This document shows positions 32,101 through 51,658 of a stretch of 64,000 nt of DNA, piece by piece. This DNA is from an uncultured bacterium (lineage in GTDB: Bacteria > Edwardsbacteria > AC1 > EtOH8), in assembly GCA_964588285.1 (NCBI GenBank), contig CAZPNX010000001.1, forward strand, positions 143 through 64,142. The letters run 5' to 3'. Every line of letters begins with the position of its first letter. The stretch's first letter is position 1. A model generated the notes under the pieces. It worked only from the letters and a program-made list of their open reading frames with translations. It was not told the DNA's origin and searched no databases. The position numbers and the translations under genes are program-made.

Positions 32101-34780
32101 GAACGAATGGAACAATCTGGTCTACGCCCGGGTCTGGATGGACGGGCTGTCGGCGCCGGGCGACATAGAATTGGCCATGGTCGAGGTCACCGGCAACCGC
32201 TGGCTTTCCCAGGGGGTGGCCACCGAGGACACGGCCAATCCGGTGGATCCGCAATCCGAACGTTTTGACATCAGCGTCAAGAACAACCGGGACGACGCCG
32301 ACTATTCCCAGAATCCGCCTTACACCCCGGACAAAGACGAACAGGGCCGGGTCAAATTCGAGCAGAGCCTGGTGTACAAGATCGCCTCCCTGGACTCGGG
32401 ACATACGGTCAGCGCCAGGAGGAGCCTAAGGGAGGGCGAGAACAACTACACCGGCTACCGTACCATGAGGCTCTACGTCCGCAACCACGGCCGGGCGGTG
32501 CGGGGCTCGTTCTTCGTCAGGCTGATAGCCAGCGACAGCAACAGCTACTATGAATACCGGGAGCCGTTGACCGGCTATTGGCGGGACGTGGGCATCGAGC
32601 TCGACCGTTTCAGCGATCTTAAAAAGCTGCCCCGGGATTCCGGCCAGATCTTTGTCCGACAGGGCAATTACAGCATGCGGGGCCGCCCCAACCTTACCCA
32701 GCTATCGCGCATCGCCCTGGGAGCCTATGTCGATGAAAACGTCGCCACCGGGGACAACGTCGAGGTTTGGTTCGACGACCTGCGGCTGGACGACGTTCGT
32801 CGCGACGGAGGCGCCGCCATGATCACCCGGCTGGACCTGGGCTTCGCCGATCTGCTAGATGTCAACCTGAGCTACAACGACCGGAGCAGCCATTTCTATC
32901 GGATCGATGAGAGGCCGCCGACTTCGGGCAGCCGCAGCCAGGCCTTTGGGGCCAGCGGCACCATCAGGCTTCATAAGTTTTTCCTGGAGAAGCTGGGGCT
33001 GACCCTGCCGCTAACCTACCGTTATGCCGCCAGCAACACCTATCCCGAATTCGGCCGGGACGATATCCGTTTGAACAAGGAGGAGAGCCGGGAGGAAGCG
33101 ACGCGCCGCCGGGAATTGGGCTTTGGGGCCGGCATCAGCAAAAGCCTGTCCAAGTATTGGCTGACCAACCTGACGGTGGACCGTCTGTCTCCCTCTGTCA
33201 GCTGGAGCCGGAACACCGGACGGGATCCCAATTCGGCCGACAGCAACACCACCCTCACCATGGCTTTGGGCTACCGTTGGTCCCCGGCGACTCGGAGGGA
33301 GCTCAAGGTATTCCGGGGTTGGAAACTTTCCTACCTGCCCTCCAACCTCTCTTGGGACTGGAATAGCTCACAAACCAGGATATGGCGCTGGGACAAGCTG
33401 GCCAATGTGGTGAGCACTGTCGGCAGCGGCCGGACCCGCACTGCCCAAGGCCAGTTCGGCTGGCAGCCGGTGGAGCAGCTGACCTACAGTTTTGGCACCC
33501 AGCGCAACCTGCTGCAGAAAAGGATGGCCGGCCATCTGGCCCAGAGGCTGGGGCTGGGTTCGGAGGTGGGCCGCAATCAGAGTATAGATTACCGCACCAA
33601 CGTCAAATGGCTGAAGGTGGTTCAACCCACCGTCTCCTACACCGTCCGGTACAACGAGAGCCACCAGATGTACGGAGGCCAGGCCGGCGCCGACTCGGTG
33701 GACGTTATGGCCACCACCAACTCCAACAGCTTTTCCTCATCGGCCGGATTGGGCCTGGGCAAATGGATGTCCTTCTTGACCGGGCTGCGAAACGAGAAGC
33801 ACGACACCTCGGCCGAAGCCGGCAGTCCCAGGTGGGCGGTGATCCAGTTGGAGAAGTTCTTCAAGAGATGGAACGGAGTCTCGCTGGAATTTTCCCAGAC
33901 CAAGTCCAGCCAGACTTCGGGACTGTTGAGCCGGCCCGGATTTCTCTATCAGATCGGATGGCAAAGGGATCCTTCAGGCATCGCCCGCTACCGGCAGGCC
34001 GGCTCGGATCAGAGCAGTTTGGGCAACAACTATTCGGCCACCACCCAGGCGTCTATGGGAAGGATAAGCCTGGACCTGGCCTGGAGGCTGGGCGATGAAT
34101 GGAGGTGGTCGGGAGGCGTCACCAGCAGCCGCCGAAGCTTGACCTGGCCGGACGTCAGGGCCACCATGGGGTCTCTGGAGAGGCTGGGTTTTTGGAGGAA
34201 GGCCATGTCCAGCTCCAGCCTGACCGCCAACTACAGCCTGACCGCCGACAGCAGCTGGCAGCAGGACCGCGGATTTTTAAGCAAGGGCCAAAGGCAGAGG
34301 ATAGGAGCCGCCTGGAACGGCCGCTGGAAGAACCAAATCAACTCAGACCTGTCGGCCGATTATTCGCTGGAGGAAACCCGCGAGCCCAACCAGAACTATC
34401 CCGACGGCATCTTCCACAAGGTGACCTCCAGCCGCAAGCTTTCCACTTCGCTCTCCTATGCTTTCAGCGCCCCCAAGGGACTGGTGCTGAATTTTGGCAA
34501 GCTGGGTAAGCGACGCTTTAGATTCACAAGCTCCTTGAGCATGTCGCTGCGGGCCGAGTACACCGAGCGCGAGGAGAAAAGCAACTCGGTCGCCTCCAGG
34601 GATCTGGTGCCGTCGCGGCGTAGCCAGGAACTTTCTGTAGCCCCCAGCGCCAGCTACAATTTCTCCCGCAGCATTACCGGAAACCTGGCTATGGAGTACG
34701 CCTTCAACAAAGACAGGATCTCCTCGGTCAACAATTGGCGCCGCTATAGCCTTAACGCCGCGGTGGATATCAAGTTCTGA
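29159..34780 (+). CDS. giant (1873 aa) secreted outer-membrane protein; predicted very large beta-barrel (SprA-like?)
   Basis: Sec signal peptide 'MPKSRLKIIKAAAGLLLLLLAGKLEAQG'. Long C-terminal region of alternating-polarity beta-strand patterns rich in W/Y/S/R/N. C-terminus 'LNAAVDIKF' matches the OMP beta-signal (terminal Phe). No secretin motif seen. Confidence 0.8.
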   Translation: MPKSRLKIIKAAAGLLLLLLAGKLEAQGFGAMDSLAGTVAGRDLQMPATTVQYDPDLDLWLEQELAQGIVFDLRYRTFDGQWQRRREESLESLTRASRYDFLSKPAEARTGEGLIPDISVPLPGLDKVLGAGAQVKINGNQKISVGGEQTVYPNSKSTSELERARSNFDLKIKQEQRINLEGVIGDRVHVLIDHDSQADIDKKSKVRLRYEGKEDEIIESLEAGDTEFSIQGSSLVGGLTTVHKGLFGIKGVARLGGLELSAIASKDEGQSQSESYTGQSQKDSFALRDYEFINYRFYRLPLAQGDSIMDLRVYVNDNTQTSQAINAWLLDHSWRDFGYDPSRVDTLYGSLTQIMLKENLTDYVLDDRRNGILYTRHSLDRSHIMAVAMKVYNPGYGVRYYPDSTAFYPGVFINPNLAVMKRSNPQPPDSINGYSWLYQERRFYDLRKPQIIQSSLKIRIYKDTGENVLLERDTLMPGRPTFIHRLGLDRDDNGEIDPDFLRLGDEGFFYFPYSEPFAMDSLLTDPNTVIYRKVDPEPSDSKYRVVITFLTSTAIFNLRAPGRIIEGSVKVYVGGQLLPESDYQMDYDTGLITFTAAASDRINRPDVQLKIDYQYYPIFALGSKTLAGVRGLYKFNESSQLGATWMYRSERTPEDKPRLGEEPRRIIVAGVDGSFTAKPELMTRLADALPGVETEAPSRMSFSGEAAANFPNPNTKGQVYIDDMDGAKLSDEFTLSRLNWARSSVPTGKQASQLARTFYWYNPRNRVTMGELNPNLTDPAERSQQLTTLKMHLVPDTAAGPADSSWAGITTVLSKTGLDLTERRLLNVWVRSIRSDQPTAGQGKLHIDIGKSIHEDQARRNAAGLLVGPNDSVNGEPLSAAGEQVTTDANDIGIDGFANGSPYDDGSDDFNRDDSTRMNGTEGNGYYDTEDLLLTGKPLGTPYGTPQNNYHTFSFDLSGGSGWQKLTIALDSARQVGNIARNEWNNLVYARVWMDGLSAPGDIELAMVEVTGNRWLSQGVATEDTANPVDPQSERFDISVKNNRDDADYSQNPPYTPDKDEQGRVKFEQSLVYKIASLDSGHTVSARRSLREGENNYTGYRTMRLYVRNHGRAVRGSFFVRLIASDSNSYYEYREPLTGYWRDVGIELDRFSDLKKLPRDSGQIFVRQGNYSMRGRPNLTQLSRIALGAYVDENVATGDNVEVWFDDLRLDDVRRDGGAAMITRLDLGFADLLDVNLSYNDRSSHFYRIDERPPTSGSRSQAFGASGTIRLHKFFLEKLGLTLPLTYRYAASNTYPEFGRDDIRLNKEESREEATRRRELGFGAGISKSLSKYWLTNLTVDRLSPSVSWSRNTGRDPNSADSNTTLTMALGYRWSPATRRELKVFRGWKLSYLPSNLSWDWNSSQTRIWRWDKLANVVSTVGSGRTRTAQGQFGWQPVEQLTYSFGTQRNLLQKRMAGHLAQRLGLGSEVGRNQSIDYRTNVKWLKVVQPTVSYTVRYNESHQMYGGQAGADSVDVMATTNSNSFSSSAGLGLGKWMSFLTGLRNEKHDTSAEAGSPRWAVIQLEKFFKRWNGVSLEFSQTKSSQTSGLLSRPGFLYQIGWQRDPSGIARYRQAGSDQSSLGNNYSATTQASMGRISLDLAWRLGDEWRWSGGVTSSRRSLTWPDVRATMGSLERLGFWRKAMSSSSLTANYSLTADSSWQQDRGFLSKGQRQRIGAAWNGRWKNQINSDLSADYSLEETREPNQNYPDGIFHKVTSSRKLSTSLSYAFSAPKGLVLNFGKLGKRRFRFTSSLSMSLRAEYTEREEKSNSVASRDLVPSRRSQELSVAPSASYNFSRSITGNLAMEYAFNKDRISSVNNWRRYSLNAAVDIKF

Positions 34781-34855: not shown

Positions 34856-35299
34856 ATGCTGGGATTAACCAAGGACGAAAAGCTGGTCATCGTTTTCCTC
34901 AGCATCAGCCTGGCGGCGGGGAGCTTGTTGTTGCTCTATAAAAGATTTCACCCCTCCTTCGCTACCGGACTACTCCGGTCGGACAAAGTTCTGCCGGCTC
35001 CGCTTACGGATACACTGTTTTCAGAGGCATCAGATTCCCTGCTTTCCCAGGAACCGGCCGCTGTCCGGACGGAAAAAATTGGTCCCGCCCGGGTTCCCTT
35101 GGCTCCGGTAAACATCAACACTGCCGGCCAAAAGACACTGGAAGCCCTGCCGCATATCGGCCCCTCAATGGCCAAGAGGATCATCGAGTACCGCAGCGCC
35201 TCGGGCGGATTTACCAACATCGAGCAACTGGGAAGGGTCAAAGGCATCGGCCCCAAGCGTCTGGAACAGCTCAGGCAGCATGTGACGGTTGACAGATGA
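34856..35299 (+). CDS. comEA: ComEA-family competence protein (membrane-anchored helix-hairpin-helix DNA-binding protein)
   Basis: N-terminal TM 'LVIVFLSISLAAGSLLLLY'; C-terminal tandem HhH 'ININTAGQKTLEALPHIGPSMAKRIIEYR...GFTNIEQLGRVKGIGPKRLEQL'. Confidence 0.8.
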   Translation: MLGLTKDEKLVIVFLSISLAAGSLLLLYKRFHPSFATGLLRSDKVLPAPLTDTLFSEASDSLLSQEPAAVRTEKIGPARVPLAPVNINTAGQKTLEALPHIGPSMAKRIIEYRSASGGFTNIEQLGRVKGIGPKRLEQLRQHVTVDR

Positions 35300-38921: not shown

Positions 38922-40694
38922 ATGGCGCAGAACCTGGCCGAGATGCTGATGAAGATGGGCCTTTTAACCAAGGCCCAGTACGATAAAGCGGTGCTGGAGC
39001 AGAAGACGGCGGCCGAGCCTCAGGCGGCCACCTTGGTGCGCCTGGGCATGGTCACCGAGAACGTCATGACCCAGTTTCTCTCCCGCCAGTTCAACGTACC
39101 CTCCATGGACCTGTCAAACTTTCAGGTGGAGCCGGCAGTGCTGAAGCTGGTCAAGGCCGACGTGGCCAACCGCTTCCTGGCGGTGCCCATCAAGCGGTTG
39201 GGCCGCAGCCTGACGGTGGCCATGGTCGATCCCTCGGATATCTTCGCCCTGGAGGATATCAAGTTTCTCACCGGGCTGGAGGTCAAGCCGGTGGCCGCCG
39301 GCTACAACGCCATCCGCAAACTCTTGGAGCAGCATTATCCTCTGGGAAAGGACCTGACGGTCATCTCGGAGACGGCCGGAAATCTTGCCCAGATCAAGGA
39401 TCAGGTTCTGGAGGAGCTGCCCGTATCCGAACTGGCCGAGGCCGGCTCCGGGGACATGGAGATGGAGTGGGTGGACGATGGGGAGGTCGAGGAGGACGTG
39501 GACATCTCCCAACTGCAGCAGGCCGGCCAGGCCACCCCGGTGGTCAAGATGGTAAACTACATCATGACCGAGGCGGTGCGGCGAGGGGCCTCGGACATCC
39601 ACATTGAGCCCTACGAGAAACTGTTCCGGGTGCGCCTGCGTCAGGACGGGGTGCTGCAGACCCTGATGGAGCCGCCCCTGAGGATGAAGGCTCCGTTGGT
39701 GGCCCGCATCAAGGTCATGTCCAAGCTCAACGTCACCGAGAGGCGCAAGCCCCAGGATGGCCGCATCGCCCTCAAGGTGCTGGGGAAGAAGATCGACCTG
39801 CGGGTTTCCACACTGCCGGTGCTGTTCGGCGAAAAGGTGGTGATGCGTATCTTGGACGCCAGCTCCCTGACGCTGGACCTGGCCAACTTTGGCTTTACAG
39901 AGCTGGCCCTGCGCAACTTCATGAAGGCCATCCACGCCCCCTACGGCATTCTGCTGATAACCGGCCCCACCGGCTCGGGCAAGACCACCACATTGTACTC
40001 GGCCCTGTCCCAGCTGAACACGCCCGACCGCCACATTCTGACGGTGGAGGACCCCATCGAGTACAACCTTAAGGGCATAAACCAGATCCAGGCCGAGCCC
40101 CAGATAGGCCTGACCTTTGGGGCGGCCCTGAGGGCCATGCTCCGGCAGGCGCCCAATATCATCATGCTGGGCGAGATCCGTGACGGGCCGACGGCCGAAA
40201 TCGCGGTCCGGGCGGCTCTCACCGGACACCTGGTTCTATCCACCCTGCACACCAACGACGCCCCGTCCTCGGTGTCGCGTCTGATAGACATGGGCATCGA
40301 GCCGTTCCTGGTGGCCTCCTCGTGCATTCTGATCCAGGCCCAGCGTTTGGTGCGCCGCATTTGCAAACAGTGTAAGGCCCCGGCCAATGTCAACCCCCAG
40401 CTTTTGTACGACATGGGATACAAACCCGAGGACATCAAGGATGTGGCCTTCTTCAAGGGCAAAGGCTGCTCGGTCTGCAACAATACCGGATACAAGGGCC
40501 GGGTGGGTCTGTACGAGGTGATGCCCATCACCCCGGAGATACGGGAGATGATACTTACCAAGCAGGCGGTGACCACCATTCGGGCCAAGGCGGTGGAGCA
40601 GGGCATGCTCACCCTGCGCATGGACGCCTGGGGCAAGGTCAAGCAGGGGATGACCACGGTGGAGGAGATGATCCGGGAAACGGCCGAAGGCTAA
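38922..40694 (+). CDS. pilB: PilB/GspE-family ATPase (paralogue 3); N-domain MshEN motifs degenerate
   Basis: 'GPTGSGKTTT', 'CKQC...CSVC'. N-domain 'NLAEMLMKMGLLTKAQYDKAVLEQ' (LG to LA) and 'AATLVRLGMVTENVMTQFLSRQ' (leading RLG lost). Confidence 0.9.
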   Translation: MAQNLAEMLMKMGLLTKAQYDKAVLEQKTAAEPQAATLVRLGMVTENVMTQFLSRQFNVPSMDLSNFQVEPAVLKLVKADVANRFLAVPIKRLGRSLTVAMVDPSDIFALEDIKFLTGLEVKPVAAGYNAIRKLLEQHYPLGKDLTVISETAGNLAQIKDQVLEELPVSELAEAGSGDMEMEWVDDGEVEEDVDISQLQQAGQATPVVKMVNYIMTEAVRRGASDIHIEPYEKLFRVRLRQDGVLQTLMEPPLRMKAPLVARIKVMSKLNVTERRKPQDGRIALKVLGKKIDLRVSTLPVLFGEKVVMRILDASSLTLDLANFGFTELALRNFMKAIHAPYGILLITGPTGSGKTTTLYSALSQLNTPDRHILTVEDPIEYNLKGINQIQAEPQIGLTFGAALRAMLRQAPNIIMLGEIRDGPTAEIAVRAALTGHLVLSTLHTNDAPSSVSRLIDMGIEPFLVASSCILIQAQRLVRRICKQCKAPANVNPQLLYDMGYKPEDIKDVAFFKGKGCSVCNNTGYKGRVGLYEVMPITPEIREMILTKQAVTTIRAKAVEQGMLTLRMDAWGKVKQGMTTVEEMIRETAEG

Positions 40695-40789: not shown

Positions 40790-41863
40790 ATGATCACCCT
40801 GCAGCAGCTTCTGGAGGAACTGATCCAAAAGAAGGCCACCGACCTCCACCTGACGGCCGGGGTGCCCCCGGTTTTCCGCATCGACGGGGAGCTGGTCCAG
40901 TCCAACCACGAGATCATGACCCCGCAGATGACCGAGCAGCTGGCCTACAGCATTCTTACCGACCAGCGGAAAAAGCGCTTTGAAATGGAAAAGGAACTGG
41001 ACCTGTCCATAGGCATCACCGGCCTGTCGCGATTTAGGGGCAACGTCTTCCTGCAGCGGGGCGGGGTGGCCATGGCCCTGCGCACCATTCCCTGGGAGAT
41101 CCGCTCCTTCCAGGCCCTGGGTCTGCCTCCGGTGGCGGCCGAGCTGTCCGACAAGCCCAAGGGGCTGGTGCTGGTGACCGGGCCCACCGGTTCCGGCAAA
41201 TCCACCACCCTGGCCACCATGCTGGACAAGGTCAATTCCGAGCGCCGCTCCCACATTCTGACAGTGGAGGACCCCATCGAATATATGCACCACCACAAGA
41301 AGTGCATCGTCAACCAGCGGGAATTGGAGTCAGACACCAAGAGCTTCGGAAACGCCCTGAAGTACGCCCTGCGCCAGGATCCGGACGTGGTGCTGATAGG
41401 CGAAATGCGGGACCTGGAAACCATCGAGGCCGCTTTGCGCATCTCGGAGACCGGGCACCTGACCTTTGCCACCCTGCACACCAACTCGGCCATGGAGTCC
41501 ATCCACCGCATCATCGACGTCTTCCCGCCGCACCAGCAGTCACAGGTGCGGGCCCAGCTGGCCTTTGTGCTGGAGGGGGTGATGACCCAGCAGCTGGTGC
41601 CTATGACCCGCGGGGGCCGCTGTCTGGCGTTGGAGATCATGATCTGCACCCCGGCCATCAAAGCCCTGATCCGCGACGACAAGGTTCACCAAATCTACTC
41701 CCTGATGCAGGCCGGCCAGAAGTACGGCATGCAGACCATGAACCAATCACTGTTCCAGCTGTTTATGGACAAGAAGATTTCTTTAGACACGGCCCTGGAT
41801 TACTCTCCGGCTGTGGAAGAGCTGGATCAGATGATCAAGCGGAGAACGGCAAACGCGGTGTGA
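40790..41863 (+). CDS. pilT: twitching motility retraction ATPase PilT
   Basis: Lacks the GspE N-domain. 'ATDLHLTAGVPPVFRIDGEL', Walker A 'GPTGSGKSTT', 'AIKALIRDDKVHQIYSLMQAGQKYGMQTMNQSL' PilT C-terminal motif. Confidence 0.9.
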   Translation: MITLQQLLEELIQKKATDLHLTAGVPPVFRIDGELVQSNHEIMTPQMTEQLAYSILTDQRKKRFEMEKELDLSIGITGLSRFRGNVFLQRGGVAMALRTIPWEIRSFQALGLPPVAAELSDKPKGLVLVTGPTGSGKSTTLATMLDKVNSERRSHILTVEDPIEYMHHHKKCIVNQRELESDTKSFGNALKYALRQDPDVVLIGEMRDLETIEAALRISETGHLTFATLHTNSAMESIHRIIDVFPPHQQSQVRAQLAFVLEGVMTQQLVPMTRGGRCLALEIMICTPAIKALIRDDKVHQIYSLMQAGQKYGMQTMNQSLFQLFMDKKISLDTALDYSPAVEELDQMIKRRTANAV

Positions 41864-42227: not shown

Positions 42228-43442
42228 ATGCCAGTCTACGTATGGAAGGGGCGGGACTCCAAGTCCGGCATTGCTACCGGCGAGATGACGGCCGAAAACG
42301 AGGCGGCAGTCATCGAGGCCCTGCGCAAACGGAACGTCATCGTCTCCTCGGTCAGGCCCAAGCCCAAAGAGCTGAAGATGCCGGGCTTCATGGCCAGCAA
42401 GGTCTCCAGCCGGGACCTGTCCATCTTTACCCGCCAGTTTGCCACCATGATCAACGCCGGCCTGCCCCTGGTGCAGTGCCTGGAGATCCAGGCCGCCCAG
42501 CAGGAGAGCCCGGTGTTCAAGAAGGTTATCGAACAGGTGAAAACCGACGTCGAGGGCGGCTCCACCTTGGCCGAGGCCCTTAAGCGGCAGAAGCAGGTCT
42601 TCTCCGAGCTATACATCAACATGGCCGCGGCCGGAGAGGCCGGCGGTATTTTGGACAACATCCTTCTCCGCCTGGCGGTCTACTTGGAGAAGGCCGAGGC
42701 CCTGGCCCGGAAGATCAAAGGGGCCATGATCTACCCGGTGATCATGATCTGCGTGGCCATCGGCGCGGCCGCGGTGCTCTTGATATTCGTCATCCCCATC
42801 TTCGAGAAAATGTTCGGCGAGATGGGGGCCAAGCTGCCGGGCCCAACCCTGTTTGTCATCGGGCTTTCCAAATTTCTTCAAAAATATATAATTCTGATAA
42901 TTGCCGTCATTGCCGGAGCCATCTTCGCCATTCGCAACTGGTACAAAACAGACAAGGGCCAGTTATTTTTAGACCAGTTGATGCTGAAGATTCCCATTCT
43001 GGGAGACCTGCAGCAGAAATCTTCCATCGCCCGGTTCGCCCGGACCCTGGGGACGCTCTTGGCCTCGGGCGTGGCCATTTTGGACGCTCTGGAGATCACG
43101 GCCAAGACGGCCGGCAACCGGGTGGTCCAGGACGCCATTTTGTCGGCCCGCAAGTCAATCGGCGGCGGCGAGACCATCTCGGCGCCTTTAAAGACCATGA
43201 AGATCTTCCCGCCGATGGTGGTCCAGATGATCTCGGTGGGCGAGGCCACCGGCGGCCTGGACGAGATGCTCAACAAGATCGCCGATTTCTACGACGAGGA
43301 GGTGGACACCGCGGTGGAGAACCTGACCGCGGCCATGGAGCCCATGATCATGGTGGTTTTGGGCTTGGGCATTGGCGGCCTGGTGATCTCCATGTATCTG
43401 CCCATCTTCACCATGACCTCGGCCCTGATGGGCGGTAAATGA
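42228..43442 (+). CDS. pilC: type IV pilus platform protein PilC (GspF family)
   Basis: Duplicated GspF domains, 3 TM helices, 'MPVYVWKGRDSKSGIATGEMTAENEAAVIEALRKRNV' N-terminus. Confidence 0.9.
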   Translation: MPVYVWKGRDSKSGIATGEMTAENEAAVIEALRKRNVIVSSVRPKPKELKMPGFMASKVSSRDLSIFTRQFATMINAGLPLVQCLEIQAAQQESPVFKKVIEQVKTDVEGGSTLAEALKRQKQVFSELYINMAAAGEAGGILDNILLRLAVYLEKAEALARKIKGAMIYPVIMICVAIGAAAVLLIFVIPIFEKMFGEMGAKLPGPTLFVIGLSKFLQKYIILIIAVIAGAIFAIRNWYKTDKGQLFLDQLMLKIPILGDLQQKSSIARFARTLGTLLASGVAILDALEITAKTAGNRVVQDAILSARKSIGGGETISAPLKTMKIFPPMVVQMISVGEATGGLDEMLNKIADFYDEEVDTAVENLTAAMEPMIMVVLGLGIGGLVISMYLPIFTMTSALMGGK

Positions 43443-43687: not shown

Positions 43688-45904
43688 ATGAACCTTAAAA
43701 CCCCGTTTGCCGGCAATATTTCCTGGCTGGTTCGGTTGGGGCTTATGGTCCTGCTCCTGACCAGCGCGGCCGCCCTGGGCCGAATGGGCGTTCTTTCGAT
43801 CCGGCTGGGATGGGCTTTGTTGTTCAGCGCCGTATATCTGGCGGCCACCGCCGGACTGGCCGTCTGGAGGCGTCCGGATCTGAGGGCTGCAGCCGATTAC
43901 GCTCACATTTTGCTGGATATTTTATGGATTTTCGCCTTCATCCGGGCCGTGGGCGGGGCAGAAAGCCCGTTCTCACTGCTCTTCTTCCTGACCATCATCC
44001 AGGCGGCCAACGTCCGTTTTTTACGGGGGGCCATCGGGTCGGCGGCGCTCTCCAGCTTGGCCTTTGCCCTTTTGCTAGTCATGGAGTATAAATCCTGGGC
44101 CGCCGTTCAGCAGGGGGCGGGGTCGGCCGAGCTGATGGCCGCCTTCAGGGCCGACTTCCTTTTCCGGGGATATGTCTACGCCATCTGCTTCTTTGTGGTG
44201 GCCGCGCTTTCCGGCATCCTGGCCGAGAGGCTACGCCTTAAGGGCCGCCAGCTGGAGGCGGCCGCCCGCGGCTGGGAGGAGTTCCGTCTCTCCACCGGAG
44301 ACATCCTCAAGAAAATGGGCTCCGGCCTGCTGACGGTCAACGCCAACGGCCAGGTACGCTATTGCAACCGGACCGGGGCCGAAATTTTGGGCCTAGCAGA
44401 AGACAATATCGAGGGTTTGCAGATCAGCGAGGCCTTTAAGGGGAGGAACAACGCCTTTGGTTCGATTCTGGAATCAACCCTGCGGGCCGATCTGGAGCCG
44501 CCGGATGATGAAAGCCAGAGTGCCCAGGCCTCCAAGCGCCGATTGACCGATGTCCGTCGGGAACTGATTCTGCAGCGGGAGGATGGGTCGGAAATACCAA
44601 TCGGCATAAGCACCACCACGGTGCGGGACGCCGAGGGCAGGGTGCAGGGTCTGATCGCCATTTTCCAAAACCTGACAGAGGCCAAGCGCATTGAGGGCCG
44701 CCTGCAACAGATGGAGAAACTGGAGGCCCAGAACGAGCACACCCATATATTGTTGACCATGGTCCAGCCGATGCTGGCCGGCATCGAGCAGGACATCGGC
44801 CGGGCGACCGAGCGCTTTTCCGGGGCCGAGCTTGAAGAGTTGTCCCGGGACATCGGGGCCAAGGTGGAATCGGTGCGCCGGGTGATTGAGGACTTCATGC
44901 GCTATGCCCGGATCGAGATCCCCCAGGAACGCCGTGAGGACGGGGGGAATCCGCCGTCCGAAGAGAAGGCGGTCATCGGACGTTCCCGTATTTTTCTAAA
45001 AACCATGGAGCTGGTGGGACAGGTGGCGGCCTCTGACAGCACGGTGCTGCTCCAGGGCGAGTCCGGCACCGGCAAGGAGCTGCTGGCCCGGGAGATCCAC
45101 CGGTTAAGCAAGCGGCGCCACGGGCCTTTCGTCACCATCAACTGCGCCGCCCTGCCCGAGGGTCTTTTGGAGTCCGAGCTTTTTGGGCATGTCCGGGGCT
45201 CGTTCACCGGGGCGGTGCGGGACAAGGACGGTCTGTTTAGGGCAGCCGACGGGGGCACCTTCTTTTTGGACGAGGTTTCCGAGACTTCGCCGGCCATCCA
45301 GGTCAAGCTTTTAAGGGTGCTGCAAGAGAGGGAGATCGTTCCGGTCGGCGGTTCCAAGCCCATCAAGGTGGATGTCAGGTTGATTTCGGCCACCAATGCC
45401 GTTTTGGCAGACTTGGTGGAAAAGGGCCGGTTCCGCAGCGACCTGTTCTACCGGCTTAATGTAATCCCCATAAGCATTCCGCCCCTAAGGGAGCGGGAGG
45501 ATGACATCCTGCTGTTGGCCGAGCACTTTATCGCCAAATACTGCCAAAAGACGGGAAAGCCAATGATGGGGTTTTCCGAGCGGGCCGAGAAGGCCTTAAA
45601 ATCGTATAGATGGCCTGGGAACGTCAGGGAGCTGGAGAACGCCATGGAAAGGGCGGTGGTGGTTTCAGATTCGGTCAAAATAGAATTGGAGGACCTGCCC
45701 AAGAACGTTCAGGAGGCTGGGAAGTCACAGAAACAAATCCCTGAAATCAGGGCCGGCGAAGGGACCCTGCGCGAAAAGGAGATGGAGTCCATTGTCCGCG
45801 CTCTTAGGGAGGAGAAAGGCAACAAGAAGCTGGCGGCCAAAAGGTTGGGGATACATTACGCCACGCTGTATCGGAAGATCAAGCAGTATGGGCTGGAAGG
45901 CTAA
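43688..45904 (+). CDS. sigma-54-dependent transcriptional activator with N-terminal integral-membrane sensor and PAS domain (no receiver domain)
   Basis: ~190-aa N-terminus with 5-6 TM helices, then a PAS-like region ('[22 protein letters not shown]'). AAA+ sigma54 domain '[18 protein letters not shown]', 'GSFTGA', 'GGTFFLDEV'. C-terminal Fis-type HTH '[23 protein letters not shown]'. Confidence 0.85.
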
Positions 45905-46025: not shown

Positions 46026-46138
46026 ATAAAAGAACAGTAAGAAAATTAAGAAAACATTGCTGGAAATATCTGTGATTTATAAACTCTTTATATTCAAAGA
46101 CTAACAAAATCATAAAAATTATAAAAAACTGTTGACTT

Positions 46139-46154
46139 TGGCACTTCGATTGCA
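46139..46154 (+). promoter_or_regulatory. sigma-54 (-24/-12) promoter of the major pilin gene
   Basis: TGGCAC-ttcga-TTGCA exactly matches the TGGCAC-N5-TTGC(A/T) consensus, 67 nt upstream of the pilin ATG and directly downstream of the sigma-54 activator gene. Confidence 0.75.
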
Positions 46155-46220
46155 TTATAATTTAATGGAATTCTAACAAAACCAACAACCAACCATTTAA
46201 CACTTTAGGAGGCAAAACGG

Positions 46221-46763
46221 ATGAACAACAAAGGCTTCACCCTCATCGAGCTGATGATCGTGGTGGTCATCATCGGCATCTTGGCAGCCATCGCCATCCC
46301 CAACTTCATCTCCATGCAAAACCGGGCTAAGGAAGCCAGCGTCAAGTCTAACATGCATACAATCCAGTTGGCGGCCGAGGACTTTAGCACCATTACCGAG
46401 GGAACATATCCTTCGGACTGCGCTACAACCATAGGGCAAGTAAGAACAGTCATTTTCGGCGCTGGCGATCCATTGGCAGCCGATCCTCGCTCGCTTTGTG
46501 GCGCAGCTGCCGGCTTAACTCCTGCCGCTGCCAACAGCATGGTCCCATCCAACATGAGAAATCCGATAGTGGGCGCCAATAACGCGTTCCAGTCGGTAGG
46601 TATCAATGCGGTGCACGCTCCCGGCACTTCGGGGACAGTCGGTTTCGAATCCTTTGACAACGCGGCAGCTACACCAGCTGCGATCGGAGCTGCCGTGCGG
46701 TACGAGATTGATGGTGACGGTGTCACCGCAGTCATAGCGACTGTATTGACCTCTGGTCAGTAA
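46221..46763 (+). CDS. pilA: type IVa major pilin (PilA-like)
   Basis: Prepilin leader 'MNNKG' then 'FTLIELMIVVVIIGILAAIAIPNF' (class III signal, Glu+5). SD AGGAGG. Ala/Pro/Ser/Thr-rich C-terminal half. Confidence 0.9.
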   Translation: MNNKGFTLIELMIVVVIIGILAAIAIPNFISMQNRAKEASVKSNMHTIQLAAEDFSTITEGTYPSDCATTIGQVRTVIFGAGDPLAADPRSLCGAAAGLTPAAANSMVPSNMRNPIVGANNAFQSVGINAVHAPGTSGTVGFESFDNAAATPAAIGAAVRYEIDGDGVTAVIATVLTSGQ

Positions 46764-46780
46764 TAATCAGCTCGATGGAA

Positions 46781-46815
46781 GATGGGCCGTATTGTAAAAT
46801 ACGGCCCATCTTTTT
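46781..46815 (+). terminator. rho-independent terminator after the pilin gene
   Basis: GATGGGCCGTAT-tgtaaa-ATACGGCCCATC followed by TTTTT. Confidence 0.75.
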
Positions 46816-46901
46816 CGAAATTCACAAAATGAATTTTAGGCGGACAGGAAATCTCTCGCCTCCTTTTCTCGAGAGAAGGGGTAAGGTGATGGGTTAAATT
46901 C

Positions 46902-47276
46902 TTGGATAAAAGATTATTAGCTTCTCTAGCTGTGATCGGACTCATGTCCTGCGCCTCCGACACGCCCGAGGCCGGGGTCAAACGCTACTGGCAGGCGGTG
47001 GCCGAGGGCAATGCCGACAAAATGCTGCGCACCCAGATTTACTATCGACCGGGGATGACCTCGGAATATCTGATGACGATAAAGGACATCGAATGGCTGT
47101 ATCTGGACAGCTGTTCCACGGTCTACCAGAGCCCGGCCCGAGCCATCGTCTACTACCAGGTGGTTTTTAAAAAAAGAGGACGGGCAAAGTCAACAAGATA
47201 TGCGACCGGCACCATGGTTATTCTACGCAACAGAAAGTGGCTGGTTGGGCGGCCGGTGGGTGCGATTCGCCGATGA
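46902..47276 (+). CDS. small predicted lipoprotein, unknown function
   Basis: TTG start; signal peptide with lipobox 'LMSC'. Sits between the two pilin genes. Confidence 0.5.
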   Translation: MDKRLLASLAVIGLMSCASDTPEAGVKRYWQAVAEGNADKMLRTQIYYRPGMTSEYLMTIKDIEWLYLDSCSTVYQSPARAIVYYQVVFKKRGRAKSTRYATGTMVILRNRKWLVGRPVGAIRR

Positions 47277-47360
47277 GTAATGCCGTCAATTATCCGGCCG
47301 GAATCTTAGCGAAGAGGTTGGGAAAAAATCGTTTTTTGCAGAAGAATACTGGAGGCCGAC

Positions 47361-48359
47361 ATGAAGCACGGGAACAGAAGAAAAAGCATTCTGCTCAATA
47401 AGCGGATGCAGCTTAGCCTGGTATTCAGGATACTTGGAATTTCTTTGATCAGCATCCTGCTGATTGGCGGTTGCATATATCTGACCATCTGGATCCACGT
47501 AACATCTTCGGCCTTTGCTTCCGGAAAGATGTCGATGATCCAGATTTTCGACCGAGTCCATATGTTGCTGGCAGCGGTCCTTCCGGCGGCAGTCCTCTTA
47601 GTATTGTGGATGGGATTGCACATTTCCCATTCGATACTGGGGCCGCTGGTGAGGCTGGAAAACGAGTTCAAATCCATCAGACAGAATGGCTGGCATGGCC
47701 AGCCATTGAAGTTCAGGAAAAACGACGGCTTCGCCGAGCTAGCGATGGAGTTCAACGCCATGATGGATAGTCTGCAGCCTCAGGGAAAACCCTCCATTGG
47801 CCCTACAACTCCTGCTACTGAGCCTGGGAAAGAAAAATTCAAGTACGCCGGAGGCTTCACCCTCATCGAGTTGATGATCGTAGTCGTCATTATCGGCATA
47901 TTAGCGGCTATCGCGGTCCCCAACTACATCTCTATGCGTTTGCGGGCGCTTGAGGCCTCCTTAAAAGCGAATATGCATACCCTACAATGCGTTGTCGAGG
48001 AGTTCAACACCATGGCCGACGGCACATACCCGGGCGGTCTTGATGTCAGAGTGTCTGCCGTCATTCCAGCAGGGATAAATTCGTCCATTGCCGAAGGCGT
48101 CAGGATACCACCATTCCCCGCCAATGCGCTTATAAGCCCCCATGCAGGATATGCTAACCCGTTCAACCGCGCGTCAAATGCACTAGATGACTTAGCGGCT
48201 GGACCACCAGCGGTTGCACCCAGCGGTAACGTTTATTATACAGCCTATAATCAATTAGGTAATGTGACAAACGGCGTAGAAAACGCCGCATCAAGATATG
48301 TAATAACAGCTTATGGCAATAATGCACCGCTAAGCTTAGTGTTGAGATCCGGGCAATAG
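47361..48359 (+). CDS. 2TM-HAMP module fused in frame to a type IV pilin domain (or pilin with an extraordinarily long leader)
   Basis: Residues 1-135: two TM helices plus HAMP-like 'ILGPLVRLENEFKSIRQNG...NDGFAELAMEFNAMMDSL'. Then a Pro/Thr-rich linker, then 'KFKYAGG|FTLIELMIVVVIIGILAAIAVPNY' at residue 166 (F codon at 47856). No stop codon between the two parts. Confidence 0.7.
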   Translation: MKHGNRRKSILLNKRMQLSLVFRILGISLISILLIGGCIYLTIWIHVTSSAFASGKMSMIQIFDRVHMLLAAVLPAAVLLVLWMGLHISHSILGPLVRLENEFKSIRQNGWHGQPLKFRKNDGFAELAMEFNAMMDSLQPQGKPSIGPTTPATEPGKEKFKYAGGFTLIELMIVVVIIGILAAIAVPNYISMRLRALEASLKANMHTLQCVVEEFNTMADGTYPGGLDVRVSAVIPAGINSSIAEGVRIPPFPANALISPHAGYANPFNRASNALDDLAAGPPAVAPSGNVYYTAYNQLGNVTNGVENAASRYVITAYGNNAPLSLVLRSGQ

Positions 48360-48412: not shown

Positions 48413-49357
48413 ATGCACCTACCCATCCTCCAGATCGTAAACCTCTCCAAGACCTTCCACGACTGGGAGCACCTCAGATTCCGCCCCATCCCTGTGCTCA
48501 AGAGTATCTCGTTGGAGGTGCAAAAAGGGGAGATCTTTGGCTTTTTGGGCCCCAACGGGGCCGGCAAGACCACTACCATCAAGACCCTGATGGGCATCAT
48601 CCGGCCAACCTCGGGCACGGCCCGCATCCTGGGCCATGACCTGGTGGAGCATTCCCAGGAGGTGAAAAAACGCACCGGATTCCTGCCGGAGAACCCATAT
48701 TTTTACGATTACCTGAAGGTGGGCGAGTTCGTGGAATTCTGCGGGTCGCTGTTCGGCCAGGACCGGGCTTTCCGCCGTCGACGAGCGGCCGAGCTTTTGG
48801 AGATGGTGGGCATGTCTCATGCCGCCAACCTGCCCTTGAGAAAATGCTCCAAAGGGATGCTGCAGAGGACCGGCATCGCACAGTCCCTGGTCAACGACCC
48901 CGACTTCCTGGTGTGGGACGAGCCGGTCTCGGGCCTGGACCCGATAGGGAGGAAGGAGATCAAGGACCTGATGCTGGACTTGAGAAGGCGGGGCAAGACC
49001 ATCTTCTTCAGTTCCCACATCCTGCCCGATGCCGAGGCCCTGTGCGACAGGGTGGCCATTATTATCAATGGAGAAGTGAATACCATCGGAACCCTTCCCG
49101 AACTGATGAAAGACGCGGTTTCGTGGGTTGAAATCGTGGCCGAGGACCTCAAGCAAGGCTTTAAGTACCGGGAGGCGACGGTGGAGAACGTGGCCAATCA
49201 GACAATCTTTAAGATAAAAGATATCAAGCATTTAGATAATATTCTTAAAGCGATTATTGAGAAAAAAGGCAGAGTAATCTCCGTGACCCCACAAAGGGAG
49301 AACCTGGAAACCTACTTTGCCAGGCAGGTTAAGGCCCGGGGCCGGAAGCCGGGTTGA
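48413..49357 (+). CDS. ABC transporter ATP-binding protein (ABC-2 type exporter)
   Basis: Walker A 'GPNGAGKTTT', signature-like 'CSKGMLQRTGIAQSL', Walker B 'FLVWDEP'. Confidence 0.85.
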   Translation: MHLPILQIVNLSKTFHDWEHLRFRPIPVLKSISLEVQKGEIFGFLGPNGAGKTTTIKTLMGIIRPTSGTARILGHDLVEHSQEVKKRTGFLPENPYFYDYLKVGEFVEFCGSLFGQDRAFRRRRAAELLEMVGMSHAANLPLRKCSKGMLQRTGIAQSLVNDPDFLVWDEPVSGLDPIGRKEIKDLMLDLRRRGKTIFFSSHILPDAEALCDRVAIIINGEVNTIGTLPELMKDAVSWVEIVAEDLKQGFKYREATVENVANQTIFKIKDIKHLDNILKAIIEKKGRVISVTPQRENLETYFARQVKARGRKPG

Positions 49358-49359
49358 GG

Positions 49360-49965
49360 ACCTTACCCTCTGTTCCCTCCCCCGCAGGGAGAGGGACGGC
49401 CCCTTCCCCTGCGGGGAAGGGGCCGGGGTTAGGTCAAAGGGCTGGCTGGTCGTTGAGTGCCGCCTTGTCCCGATAAAACCTACGGCCACTTGACATGCGG
49501 CGGGTGTACTTGTGCCGAGCCGGGTCGAGGCTTCGAGACGGCCGGCGGCCCCCTCTCCGGGATCGGAGAGGGCAGGGTGAGGGCATGTCCCGCTTGGTGC
49601 GCCATGCCCGAAGCTTGAGACAGGGTTCCACTGATGCCGAAAGGTTATTGTGGAGGCATTTAAGGGATAGAAGACTGGCGGGTTTCAAATTCAGAAGGCA
49701 GTCCCCTATAGGTAGATATATAGTAGATTTCGTCTGCTTCGAAGCCAAGGTGATATTGGAATTGGATGGAAGCCAGCATGCCGAGGAAGCTCAGGCCGAG
49801 AGGGATTGTGTCAGGGACGAGTGGCTGGGAAGCCAGGGGTTCGAGGTGCTTAGGTTTTGGAACACGGAAGTGATAAAGAACGTAAGTGGTGTGCTGATGA
49901 AGATAAGGGAGGCGTGCCAGCGCACCCTCACCTAAGTCCTCTCCCATCAAGGGAGAGGTGTCGAG
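49360..49965. mobile_element. DUF559 (Vsr-like endonuclease) mini-element with flanking CCCTCTCC/GGAGAGGG hairpins, inserted between the ABC ATPase and permease genes
   Basis: Hairpins at 49398-49424 (GGCCCCTTCCCC-tgc-GGGGAAGGGGCC), 49551-49572 (CCCTCTCCG-ggat-CGGAGAGGG) and 49938-49958 (CCTCTCCC-atcaa-GGGAGAGG). Inverted GGGTGAGGG (49575-49583) / CCCTCACC (49924-49931) bracket the ORF. Confidence 0.65.
49585..49935 (+). CDS. DUF559 domain protein (very-short-patch-repair endonuclease-like fold)
   Basis: 'ERLLWRHLRDRRLAGFKFRRQSPIGRYIVDFVCFEAKVILELDGSQH...DEWLGSQGFEVLRFWNTEV' is the characteristic DUF559 sequence. Start chosen at internal Met 'MSRLV'. Confidence 0.75.
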   Translation: MSRLVRHARSLRQGSTDAERLLWRHLRDRRLAGFKFRRQSPIGRYIVDFVCFEAKVILELDGSQHAEEAQAERDCVRDEWLGSQGFEVLRFWNTEVIKNVSGVLMKIREACQRTLT

Positions 49966-49992: not shown

Positions 49993-50760
49993 ATGAAACG
50001 CATACTTGCCATCGCCCAAAACACCTTCAAGGAGACGGTGCGGGACCGGATCCTCTACGGACTGGTGGTCTTCGTCCTGTTGCTGCTGCCGGGCTCCCGC
50101 CTGGTGATACCCCTGGCCATCGGCCAGGAGCTGAAAATCATGAAGGACTTCGGCTTTGCCGCCATCGCCCTGTTCGGGCTGATGATCGCAGTGGTGGTGG
50201 GCACCGCCTTGGTGCACAAGGAACTGGACAAACGGACCATCTACGTGCTGGTGGCCAAACCGGTGCGGCGCTGGGAGCTTTTGGTGGGCAAGTATTTCGG
50301 CCTGATGGCCACCATTCTGCTGGCCTTTCTGGTGATGTTCGCAGTTTTGGCGGCCACGGTGCTGTCGCTGGGAGGCAGGCTGGACTGGCTGCTGGTCCTG
50401 ACCGTGGCCGGTCTTTTCCTGCAACTGGCGGCGGTGACCGGCCTGGCCATTTTCTTTTCCACCTTGGCCTCCCCGGCCCTATCGGCCGTTTTCACCATCT
50501 GCCTTTATATCGCAGGCACGGCCGCCGATCAGCTGCGACTGTTCGCCGAGCGCATGCCGGGGACCTTCGTCAAGCTGGCGGTCAAGGGTGCCTCATATCT
50601 GGTACCCAACCTCCACCTGTGCAGCTTCCGCAACGAGGCCGTCTACGGACTGCCGGTGTCTGGGGGCAAGGTGCTGATCATGCTGGCATATATACTGATC
50701 TACACCTCCCTGGTCCTGCTGATATCCTCGGCCATCCTGGAGAGGAAGGACCTTAAGTGA
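49993..50760 (+). CDS. ABC-2 family transporter permease
   Basis: Six TM helices; 'MKRILAIAQNTFKETVRDRILYGLVVFVLLLL' is the typical ABC-2 permease N-terminus. Confidence 0.8.
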   Translation: MKRILAIAQNTFKETVRDRILYGLVVFVLLLLPGSRLVIPLAIGQELKIMKDFGFAAIALFGLMIAVVVGTALVHKELDKRTIYVLVAKPVRRWELLVGKYFGLMATILLAFLVMFAVLAATVLSLGGRLDWLLVLTVAGLFLQLAAVTGLAIFFSTLASPALSAVFTICLYIAGTAADQLRLFAERMPGTFVKLAVKGASYLVPNLHLCSFRNEAVYGLPVSGGKVLIMLAYILIYTSLVLLISSAILERKDLK

Positions 50761-50809
50761 CGGATTGTCGTCAGGCCGTGCAAGGTCGAATCATGACCTG
50801 ACTCGGCGC

Positions 50810-51658
50810 ATGAAAAAGCTTCTCCTCATAGTCATCATCCTGGCCCTGCTGGCCTCGGCCGTCTGGCTGCTGCAGGCCCATGACCGCAGTTATTTGAGCA
50901 GCGAGGAATCGGTGCGGGAACTGATGTACTTTCCCACCGCCCAAGCGGTCAGGCTCTTGGCGGCCGGCAACGAGCTGGTGGCGGCCGACTACCTGTGGCT
51001 GAGGATGATTCAGTACTACGCCTATCATATGCGCCGCGATCAGAAGTACGAATATCTCTTTCCCATTATCGACCGGCTGACCGACCTCGACCCCCGCTTT
51101 GTTTATCCCTACACCTTCGGGGCCCTGCTTTTAGTGCACGACGCACAGGATAGTATCCAATCGCTAAAACTTTTGGACAAGGCCAAGAGGCTGAATCCGG
51201 ATCGTTGGGAGTTTCCTTATATGAAGGGTTTCATCCTCTACACCTTTCTGCGCCGGGACGAGGAGGCGGCCCTCCAGTTTGTCGAAGCCTCCAAGAAACC
51301 CAACGCCTGGGAAGGCGCCTTGCGTTTTGCCGGATGGATATACCGCAAGACCGGCCGGCGCGAGGTTTCCAAGGCCATGTGGCAGGAGCTCTTCGATACC
51401 GCCAAAGATCCTCTGGATCGGGCGGTGGCCGAGTATTATTTGAGGGCCATCGCCATGGAGGAGGAGTTGGAGCGCTTAAACTCGCTGGCGGCCCGCTTCC
51501 GTTCGGAGCAGGGCCGGTGGCCGTCAGGTTTTCGCGATCTGATGATGGCCGAACTGCTTTCTGAAATACCGAAGGAACCCTTCGGCAGAAAATATTACTG
51601 GGATTTATCATCGAACACCTTTAAAAGCCAGACCAGGCTGAATAAAAGGGTCTACTGA
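50810..51658 (+). CDS. membrane-anchored hypothetical protein (TPR-like helical repeats?)
   Basis: N-terminal signal anchor 'MKKLLLIVIILALLASAVWLL'; helical Trp/Tyr-rich repeats. Co-oriented with the ABC transporter. Confidence 0.45.
   Translation: MKKLLLIVIILALLASAVWLLQAHDRSYLSSEESVRELMYFPTAQAVRLLAAGNELVAADYLWLRMIQYYAYHMRRDQKYEYLFPIIDRLTDLDPRFVYPYTFGALLLVHDAQDSIQSLKLLDKAKRLNPDRWEFPYMKGFILYTFLRRDEEAALQFVEASKKPNAWEGALRFAGWIYRKTGRREVSKAMWQELFDTAKDPLDRAVAEYYLRAIAMEEELERLNSLAARFRSEQGRWPSGFRDLMMAELLSEIPKEPFGRKYYWDLSSNTFKSQTRLNKRVY

Follow-up and report, generated by a model that had tools for sequence, protein, structure and literature searches.

A HAMP module fused to a type IV pilin in an Edwardsbacteria pilus locus: conservation, stand-alone relatives and predicted processing

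Type IV pilins are defined by a short leader that is removed by the prepilin peptidase. How is a pilin to be read when the place of the leader is taken by what looks like a folded membrane protein? This question is raised by an open reading frame (ORF) in a 64,000-nucleotide stretch of DNA, hereafter the window, from an uncultured bacterium of the GTDB lineage Edwardsbacteria (assembly GCA_964588285.1, contig CAZPNX010000001.1, positions 143 to 64,142). The ORF (47361..48359, on the + strand like all the window genes described below) encodes 332 amino acids (aa) plus a stop, and joins in one frame a module of two transmembrane (TM) segments and a HAMP-like domain (2TM-HAMP) to a type IV pilin. 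A folded, membrane-spanning signalling leader widens what counts as a class III signal peptide, and the architecture raises the question of what a prepilin peptidase can accept.

Architecture and conservation of the HAMP-pilin fusion

The first-pass annotation, made from the letters of the window alone, had described an uninterrupted ORF of this kind, and the frame is indeed free of internal stops and frameshifts. A Shine-Dalgarno sequence, GGAGG (47351..47355), lies 5 nt 5' of the full-length ATG. The N-terminal half begins with a tail predicted to be cytoplasmic (aa 1-16, 47361..47408), which carries an NRR...K..Q motif with N5, R6, R7 and Q17 invariant. It is followed by TM1 (about aa 17-46, 47409..47498), hydrophobic and without acidic residues, by a putative periplasmic loop of low Lys+Arg (K+R) content (about aa 47-66, 47499..47558), in which T48, G55 and F63 are invariant and D64 near-invariant, and by TM2 (about aa 67-88, 47559..47624). 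The HAMP-like domain comes directly after TM2 (aa 88-139, 47622..47777), has the two amphipathic helices and intervening connector expected of a HAMP, and is matched by Pfam PF00672 with E 1.1e-4 and 22.9 bits, below the gathering threshold of 25 bits. A Pro/Thr-rich linker, predicted to be disordered (aa 140-164, 47778..47852), stands where other members of the family have a coiled-coil hairpin of ~50 aa, and leads to the predicted prepilin-peptidase site G165|F166 (47853..47858), which lies within ...FKYAGGFTLIELM....

The pilin half consists of an alpha-1 helix (aa 166-218, 47856..48014), whose first 24 residues are those of the pilin encoded just upstream (pilin 1) except for one V/I change, and of a globular head with a PPFP motif, delimited from the alignment and the AlphaFold (AF2) model and referred to here as 'PilA2' type (aa 219-332, 48015..48356). 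The N_methyl domain, with G165|FTLIELMIVVVIIGILAAIAVP, covers residues 163-185 (Pfam, E 1.3e-7, above threshold), and the class III signal model TIGR02532 scores 28.8 bits against a cut-off of 16.3. Type IV pilin models are the best NCBIfam matches of the C-terminal half, with typeIV_PilA_Myxo first, and the alpha-1 region matches by sequence the major type IVa (T4a) pilins in the PDB, namely Geobacter PilA-N, M. xanthus PilA and the PAK pilin. The gene lies with type IV pilus machinery, having pilB, pilT, pilC, a PilS-like activator and pilin 1 upstream. However, a short hydrophilic N-terminal leader is missing, since the motif starts at residue 163 of 332 and the 164 preceding aa hold two TM helices.

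In the AlphaFold model of the window protein (a monomer built from a 21-sequence alignment, mean pLDDT 72), helices span residues 6-47, which includes TM1, and 59-109, which includes TM2; a connector, a helix at 125-138, disorder at 139-167 and the alpha-1 helix at 168-218 follow. The head forms a beta-sheet (strands 275-277, 291-296 and 312-318), with pLDDT 82-92 over much of the pilin half, so that a long alpha-1 helix and a beta-sheet head together give the lollipop fold of pilins. A Foldseek search of the PDB with the whole model returned no significant match, the best being NarQ with E 1.6. The architecture noted at first pass, with two TM segments, a HAMP-like segment and a Pro/Thr linker in one frame with the pilin, is thus right.

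The fusion of a 2TM-HAMP module to a pilin is real and conserved. Two of the checks proposed in the first-pass annotation bear on a lost stop or a frameshift that might have joined two genes. In independent assemblies, the 999-nt gene is found with 0 mismatches in three others, from different samples (loci L001-L003), and the search for HAMP-pilins in related lineages, run on 5.8 billion proteins, returned 20 further full-length homologues (346-362 aa, 44-53% identity, 95-99% query cover). A sequencing or assembly error is ruled out by these two results, and the chance that the joining is an artefact is negligible. All homologues with a named organism belong to Candidatus Edwardsbacteria; the database labels of fused members are either 'prepilin-type N-terminal cleavage/methylation domain-containing protein' or 'HAMP domain-containing protein'. 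A scan of species genomes with the N-terminal module, which used narrow search patterns and gives no estimate of distribution, found two loci, one of them in Candidatus Edwardsbacteria.

Both halves of the alignment contain invariant positions. In the N-terminal half these are NRR, G36-G37, W44, T48, G55, F63, S89-H90, G94-P95-L96-V97, K117-F118-R119, D122, F131-N132 and M134, and in the pilin half they include G165, F166-T-L and E170-L-M. Of the 20 homologues, 18 share an N-terminal extension of precisely 189 aa. Over the first 139 codons, the four homologous loci compared with one another gave pN 0.13-0.21 vs pS 0.57-0.69, and the window compared with these four gave pN 0.38-0.40 vs pS 0.65-0.72, ratios that are rough because synonymous sites are near saturation. 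A Shine-Dalgarno-like motif is present at the full-length ATG in all five loci (AAGGA or AAGGGA at the same place in the four homologous ones), and in the four canonical loci a sigma-54-type GG-N10-GC element (e.g. GGGCACGATAACTGCA) lies 49-53 nt 5' of the full-length start. These data indicate that the N-terminal half is translated and under purifying selection.

The first-pass annotation had also considered translation from an internal start at MMDSL. Initiation at this Met134/135 would give a pilin with a ~31-aa leader and leave the 2TM-HAMP part unmade or as a by-product. The internal MMDSL, with a GGAG 10-13 nt 5' of the internal ATG, and the ...SGQ ends of both pilins are present in the window as described. 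However, the HAMP FNxM motif has this Met as its invariant M, the four homologous loci all lack a Shine-Dalgarno sequence at this position, and the GGAG of the window derives from Met-Glu codons. The upstream part is moreover conserved as protein and homologous to real proteins, and it is the full-length start that carries the Shine-Dalgarno motif in 5/5 loci and the sigma-54-like promoter in 4/4 canonical ones. An internal start is thus very improbable. The absence of a sigma-54 promoter for this gene in the window, also reported at first pass, holds, as no GG-N10-GC element occurs within 120 nt of the start, whereas pilin 1 has a perfect one.

The leader as a member of a stand-alone HAMP family

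A profile of the N-terminal part retrieved 693 proteins at E<1e-10 among 1.84 billion cluster representatives. The fusion family forms a single 50% cluster, and nearly all other top matches are stand-alone proteins of 130-250 aa; many of those of 185-210 aa align from profile position 1-5 to ~185. The stand-alone family is characterized by a cytoplasmic RR..Q motif, two TMs with a short loop, an SH(R/K)IAGP...LRKGDE HAMP and a C-terminal coiled coil. Its members pass the Pfam HAMP threshold with 34-46 bits, and among the 21 fused members 12 match HAMP at E<=0.01. Compared with the PDB, the N-part profile gave as sensible matches the TM2-HAMP regions of Tsr and NarQ (E 0.0025-0.006). The proteins are named 'HAMP domain-containing protein' or 'methyl-accepting chemotaxis protein' in the sources and are otherwise uncharacterised. 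Some relatives are annotated as candidate division WOR-3, and all of the evidence comes from uncultured lineages.

The C-terminus of the stand-alone proteins, often F-[KR]-[LI], aligns exactly with the fusion junction G|FTL. Because the profile match runs end to end and the C-termini align with the junction, the 'leader' is, as judged from these alignments, the entire protein of a stand-alone 2TM-HAMP-coiled-coil family. Canonical fused members, with their 189-aa extension, coiled-coil hairpin and sigma-54-like promoter, match profile positions 1-185 of 190. In a model of one such member, of lower confidence (pLDDT 58), the HAMP is followed by a helix, a turn and a second helix, and then by a stretch of ~6 non-helical residues, within which the G|F site lies. 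The geometry of this post-HAMP hairpin would return the chain to the membrane.

In the window protein, by contrast, the profile match stops near residue 139, and the hairpin is missing. The protein is, from its sequence, an atypical member, which may work differently from the canonical ones or be partly relaxed. One can thus ask whether the N-terminal module of the window lineage is a decaying relic, an oversized and possibly still cleavable membrane-targeting leader without HAMP signalling. Deviations are found at 11 of its 52 near-invariant positions, as compared with 2 of 67 in the pilin half, and it is 46% identical to the other modules, which share 65% among themselves, while the pilin half is typical. 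The coiled-coil hairpin has been lost, about 25 residues of the coiled coil being absent and a Pro/Thr linker standing in its stead; the sigma-54-like promoter is gone and the locus is rearranged. Nevertheless, the frame is intact, 41 of the 52 near-invariant positions are kept, pN against the homologues is still below pS, and the sequence is identical in three samples. We therefore regard decay of the module as quite unlikely.

Other architectures occur in the same family. The 395-aa protein P0240 is another fusion, in which ...SFFKI is followed by the signal-peptide-like IALVSAFMLCAPAVQA|N and a domain of ~180 aa; this C-terminal domain has no Pfam match. The protein shares its topology logic with the HAMP-pilin. 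In P0156 and P0200, the 2TM-HAMP unit is duplicated in tandem.

Gene neighbourhoods connect the stand-alone proteins with pilins. At the canonical fused loci (L004-L006), the order is pilB, pilB, pilT, pilC, PilS-type activator, HAMP-pilin and then an ordinary pilin, and in the window it is activator, pilin 1 (with a sigma-54 promoter before it and a hairpin after it), a small lipoprotein and the HAMP-pilin. Three further loci (L007-L009) have in the same slot a 182-aa pilin with a 13-15-aa leader, 63-68% identical to the pilin half of the fusion. Remnants of a pseudogenised HAMP upstream of these pilins were sought by tblastn and by profile searching of six-frame translations at maximum sensitivity; none was found, and in these lineages the module is simply absent from that site. 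In one of them, ~960 nt without a called gene separate the activator from the PilA2-type pilin (L009:7040-8000) and contain an internal repeat (...IQIK...SLRLFI.L...) unrelated to the HAMP module.

The closest stand-alone relatives of the N-terminal module (129-146 aa) lie, in the split loci L012-L015, 8-70 nt 3' of two pilins, in the order PilA1-PilA2-HAMP. Of these pilins, the first belongs to the PilA1 type and has the ...SGQ end, and the second is orthologous to the pilin half of the fusion (RALEASVKANMH...PPFP motif, 10-14-aa leader). A PilR-like sigma-54 activator and a trio of ABC transporter genes adjoin. Two separate neighbouring genes at this position had been named at first pass as a finding that would speak against the fusion. 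Sister lineages do have neighbouring pilin and 2TM-HAMP genes; the fusion itself nonetheless stands, and their proximity supports a functional link between its two halves.

More distant HAMP genes were surveyed in 80 metagenomic loci, which were those closest to one query rather than a random sample, in a scan that used an 8-sequence alignment. In six of them a canonical pilin gene abuts the HAMP gene, with measured gaps of -4 to +9 nt. Four of the six have pilins on both sides, with overlapping stops and starts (pilin-HAMP-pilin; L049, L050, L057, L071), and two are of the pilin-HAMP arrangement (L052, L079). Two pilins follow the HAMP gene after 232 nt in L047, and in L090 a pilin stands beside a HAMP gene cut by the contig end. 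All but two of the canonical pilin genes in the 80 loci are beside the HAMP gene (adjacent, or within 232 nt in L047). In two other loci (L054, L075) a degenerate pilin-like protein is encoded 5' of the HAMP gene, and about 20 of the 80 have a PDZ/TPR protein upstream instead.

In 26 of the 80, a bitopic protein of ~125 aa is encoded directly upstream of the stand-alone HAMP gene. Its profile aligns with pilin alpha-1 over 55 columns (hhalign probability 76%, E 2.3e-5), a score that is suggestive only because TM composition inflates such values, and the protein may be a degenerate pilin-like partner. Its gene (context A: L016-L048, L082; e.g. L035:4585-4974) is found 3' of lspA-lgt-lgt-rluD, and the sequence starts ...RQG-NFALYAIVF...FFPQF...SCREIR...AVEEY and has conserved Cys residues.

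These arrangements indicate that the partnership of HAMP protein and pilin recurs in several independent forms, of which the fusion is the covalent one. Because the halves exist elsewhere as separate neighbouring genes, two separate products appear to be the ancestral working state. Moreover, since the closest stand-alone relatives directly follow the orthologous pilin, and distant HAMP genes are usually abutted by a pilin or a degenerate pilin-like gene, the gene order argues that the fusion is a Rosetta stone for this partnership. A 2TM-HAMP family without output domain, widespread and comprising hundreds of 50%-identity clusters, thereby gains its first functional hypothesis, a link to pilins, and the link points to a new component, accessory or regulatory, in the biology of type IV filaments.

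Predicted processing at the junction

Because the determinants of processing and packing are conserved and other lineages make the two proteins separately, we favour a reading in which the prepilin peptidase (PilD) would cut G|F at the cytoplasmic membrane face, to give an assembly-competent pilin and a membrane HAMP protein; our confidence in this cleavage is evenly balanced. The precursor would be a three-pass inner-membrane protein with a 2TM-HAMP signalling protein in place of the short leader. From a cytoplasmic N-terminus, TM1 would lead out to the 20-aa periplasmic loop and TM2 back in, leaving HAMP and linker in the cytoplasm; the pilin alpha-1N would then cross outward and place the head in the periplasm, with G165|F166 at the cytoplasmic face, where PilD acts. 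This topology, including the cytoplasmic position of G165|F166, is predicted from the distribution of K+R, which is rich in the N-tail (family mean 4.1), the HAMP and the linker and sparse in the loop (0.8).

Prepilin peptidases cut at the cytoplasmic face of the membrane (PMC10191384), and the G|F site falls in a non-helical, low-confidence segment of both AF2 models, that of the window protein and that of the canonical member. G-1, F+1 and E+5 are invariant in 21/21 fused members, while positions -2 to -6 vary (TRG, QKG, VKG, AGG and others). The alpha-1N helix has 0 deviations at 23 near-invariant positions and differs very little from its counterpart in PilA1. This pattern points to selection on the determinants of cleavage and assembly. 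Furthermore, to judge from their 13-15-aa leaders without HAMP remnant, the pilin-half orthologues at the same cluster position work as ordinary prepilins.

Cleavage would yield a 167-aa mature PilA2-type pilin, able to co-assemble with the major pilin PilA1, and a membrane 2TM-HAMP protein equivalent to the stand-alone HAMP proteins of sister lineages. Through the fusion, the two would necessarily be synthesised 1:1 and localised together. A HAMP domain is typically a dimeric parallel four-helix bundle that relays a signal to an output domain placed after it. As it has no output domain, the HAMP partner most likely acts by protein contacts in the membrane. It would bind, escort or sense the pilin alpha-1N there, as PilS does, and would perhaps contact the neighbouring PilS-like sigma-54 activator.

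Several points weigh against cleavage and the partnership built on it. We know of no prepilin peptidase substrate whose leader contains a TM helix. Leaders have been described as hydrophilic peptides (PMC10191384). No PilD gene (Peptidase_A24) was found in the 64-kb window by Pfam searches of 40 of the larger ORFs and in the annotations of nine downstream genes, and its presence in this genome is assumed because pilin 1 is present. In the split loci the HAMP gene follows the pilin gene, opposite to the order in the fusion, so that simple read-through does not account for the fusion, and the equivalence of the products is something we infer. The HAMP of fused members scores below the Pfam threshold (22.9 bits in the window and 21.5 bits in P0013, vs 25), and the window copy has neither coiled coil nor sigma-54 promoter and has lost 11 of the 52 residues that are near-invariant in the N-module. 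Finally, most of the 80 stand-alone loci have no canonical pilin neighbour, and many stand-alone members are in non-pilus contexts (Lsp/Lgt, or PDZ-TPR with glycosyltransferases); pili are thus not the only setting of the family.

In the main rival reading the junction is left uncleaved, and the product would be a three-pass protein with a permanently tethered periplasmic pilin domain, in which a cytoplasmic partner would be linked to the state of the pilin helix by way of HAMP and coiled coil. Such a protein could imitate a pilin, reporting to the PilS-like activator or titrating it, or could serve as an anchor or stopper at the pilus base. We consider this outcome, in either form, somewhat unlikely. 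The fixed 189-aa extension, whose helix-turn-helix linker reaches to ~5 residues from the pilin helix, could mean mechanical coupling; HAMP domains normally signal along a continuous chain, PilD has no known precedent for cutting after a polytopic leader, and PilS and PleC read the pilin in the membrane (PMC6058289 with its reference 22; PMC7196804). However, an invariant G-1 beside variable -2 to -6, an invariant F+1 and E+5 and a PilA1-like alpha-1N are needs of processing and packing, not of a tether, and the fixed length is explained by the stand-alone family's own fold. Moreover, the disordered Pro/Thr linker that replaces the coiled coil in the window cannot transmit a conformational signal, and elsewhere the orthologues of pilin and HAMP protein function as two polypeptides.

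If PilD does cut the junction, cleavage might also be controlled. The state of the HAMP domain might gate the access of PilD to G|F, so that a signal would control the post-translational release of an alternative pilin, and the stand-alone family would be an unrecognised type IV filament accessory acting on pilins in the membrane. This proposal is speculative and, in our view, rather unlikely; if true, pilus composition would be subject to a new level of regulation, and the class III 'leader' would be the first polytopic one.

The pilus locus and comparison with known systems

The HAMP-pilin gene belongs to a pil cluster comprising pilB (38922-40694), a pilT-like ATPase gene (40790-41863), pilC (42228-43442) and the gene of the PilS-like activator (43688..45904). 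According to Pfam, the activator combines a PilS-like 6TM domain, a PAS domain, a sigma-54 AAA+ domain and a helix-turn-helix (HTH), and is without histidine kinase or receiver domain. The same architecture is found in L004-L006, where the gene is directly upstream of the HAMP-pilin, and in L009, whereas the split loci L012-L015 have a PilR with a receiver domain instead. From its domains, the window activator looks like a membrane-bound one-component PilS-PilR.

Pilin 1 (46221..46763; Pfam, NCBIfam), of PilA1 type with a 5-aa leader, is the probable major pilin. A promoter scan placed a perfect sigma-54 promoter, TGGCACTTCGATTGCA, before it (46139..46154), and a near-consensus sigma-70-like promoter (TTGACT, 18-nt spacer, TATAAT; 11/12 matches) overlaps this element at 46132-46161. 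After the gene, a terminator-like hairpin of -32 kcal/mol with a T-run (46772..46818) is present, which a simple scan did not report. Between the two pilins lies a small lipoprotein-like ORF (46902..47276) with a TTG start and the lipobox LMSC. It has no Pfam or NCBIfam match and is 48-51% identical to ORFs that follow the second pilin in L007-L009.

Downstream of the HAMP-pilin, an ABC ATPase (48413-49357), an ABC-2 permease (49993-50760) and a 297-aa protein without Pfam match (50765-51658) are encoded. An equivalent ABC trio adjoins the pilins in L006, L007, L009 and L012-L015, in a position that resembles PilGHI. We had considered this transporter as a specific partner of the HAMP module and dropped it, since it fits the general Myxococcus-type pilGHI layout and is absent beside the fusion in L004 and L005. 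A DUF559 (endonuclease-like) ORF (49495-49935) is inserted between ATPase and permease; its L002 version has been reduced to 57 aa, and the equivalent operons of L006, L007 and L009 do not contain it.

Just upstream of the pilus cluster, the window encodes a 1873-aa SprA_N protein of a translocon family related to type IX secretion and gliding (29159-34780), followed by a ComEA-like helix-hairpin-helix protein (34856-35299). The first part of the window (1-21085) is a polysaccharide/glycan cluster with many GT1, GT2 and GT4 glycosyltransferases, two Wzy_C O-antigen-ligase-like proteins, two Bac_transf initiating transferases, a PglF-like dehydratase, a DegT aminotransferase, an asparagine synthase and a radical SAM/B12 enzyme. 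Because Wzy_C/TPR proteins also follow the pilin-HAMP(-pilin) operons of L052, L071 and L079, a link to pilin glycosylation is possible.

A full-text literature search, which included long leaders and Edwardsbacteria pili, found no published description of a HAMP-pilin architecture, and the fusion is best placed by comparison with systems that share some of its features. The T4a prepilins, such as M. xanthus PilA, P. aeruginosa PilA and Geobacter PilA-N, have the same G|FTLIELM with E+5, the same alpha-1 and a beta-sheet head. The Myxococcus cluster is laid out like the pilB-pilT-pilC-pilS/R-pilA-ABC cluster of the window (PMC6060248). The leaders of T4a prepilins, however, are short and hydrophilic (PMC10191384), whereas here the leader has 164 aa (189 in canonical members) with two TMs and a HAMP.

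Long-leader pilins (type IVb; S. sanguinis PilE1 and PilE2) likewise have leaders longer than the usual 5-10 aa. These leaders are soluble peptides of a few tens of residues, and type IVb pilins combine a large head with a leader of ~15-30 aa, vary in their +1 residue and are encoded in gene clusters of T4b type. The window protein has instead a Phe at +1, a head of 114 aa and a T4a/Myxococcus-like cluster. While the leaders of long-leader pilins are described as 'much longer' or 'very long' (PMC10191384), the leader here would be a folded polytopic protein. Modular pilins, such as S. sanguinis PilB with its adhesin module, also have a pilin gene fused to an extra module; in these the modules are C-terminal and kept in the filament (PMC8179133), whereas the HAMP module is N-terminal, in cytoplasm and membrane, and predicted to be removed.

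With P. aeruginosa PilS (PMC6058289, its reference 22) and Caulobacter PleC (PMC7196804), a polytopic inner-membrane signalling protein works with the pilin alpha-1N, and the activator adjacent to the HAMP-pilin in the window carries a 6TM domain of PilS type. Unlike PilS and PleC, the HAMP module has no kinase or output domain, and its contact with the pilin is deduced from fusion and adjacency alone. The stand-alone 2TM-HAMP-coiled-coil proteins, for their part, resemble the N-terminal module of the canonical members over its whole length but end, typically in F-[KR]-[LI], where the fusion continues into G|FTLIEL.

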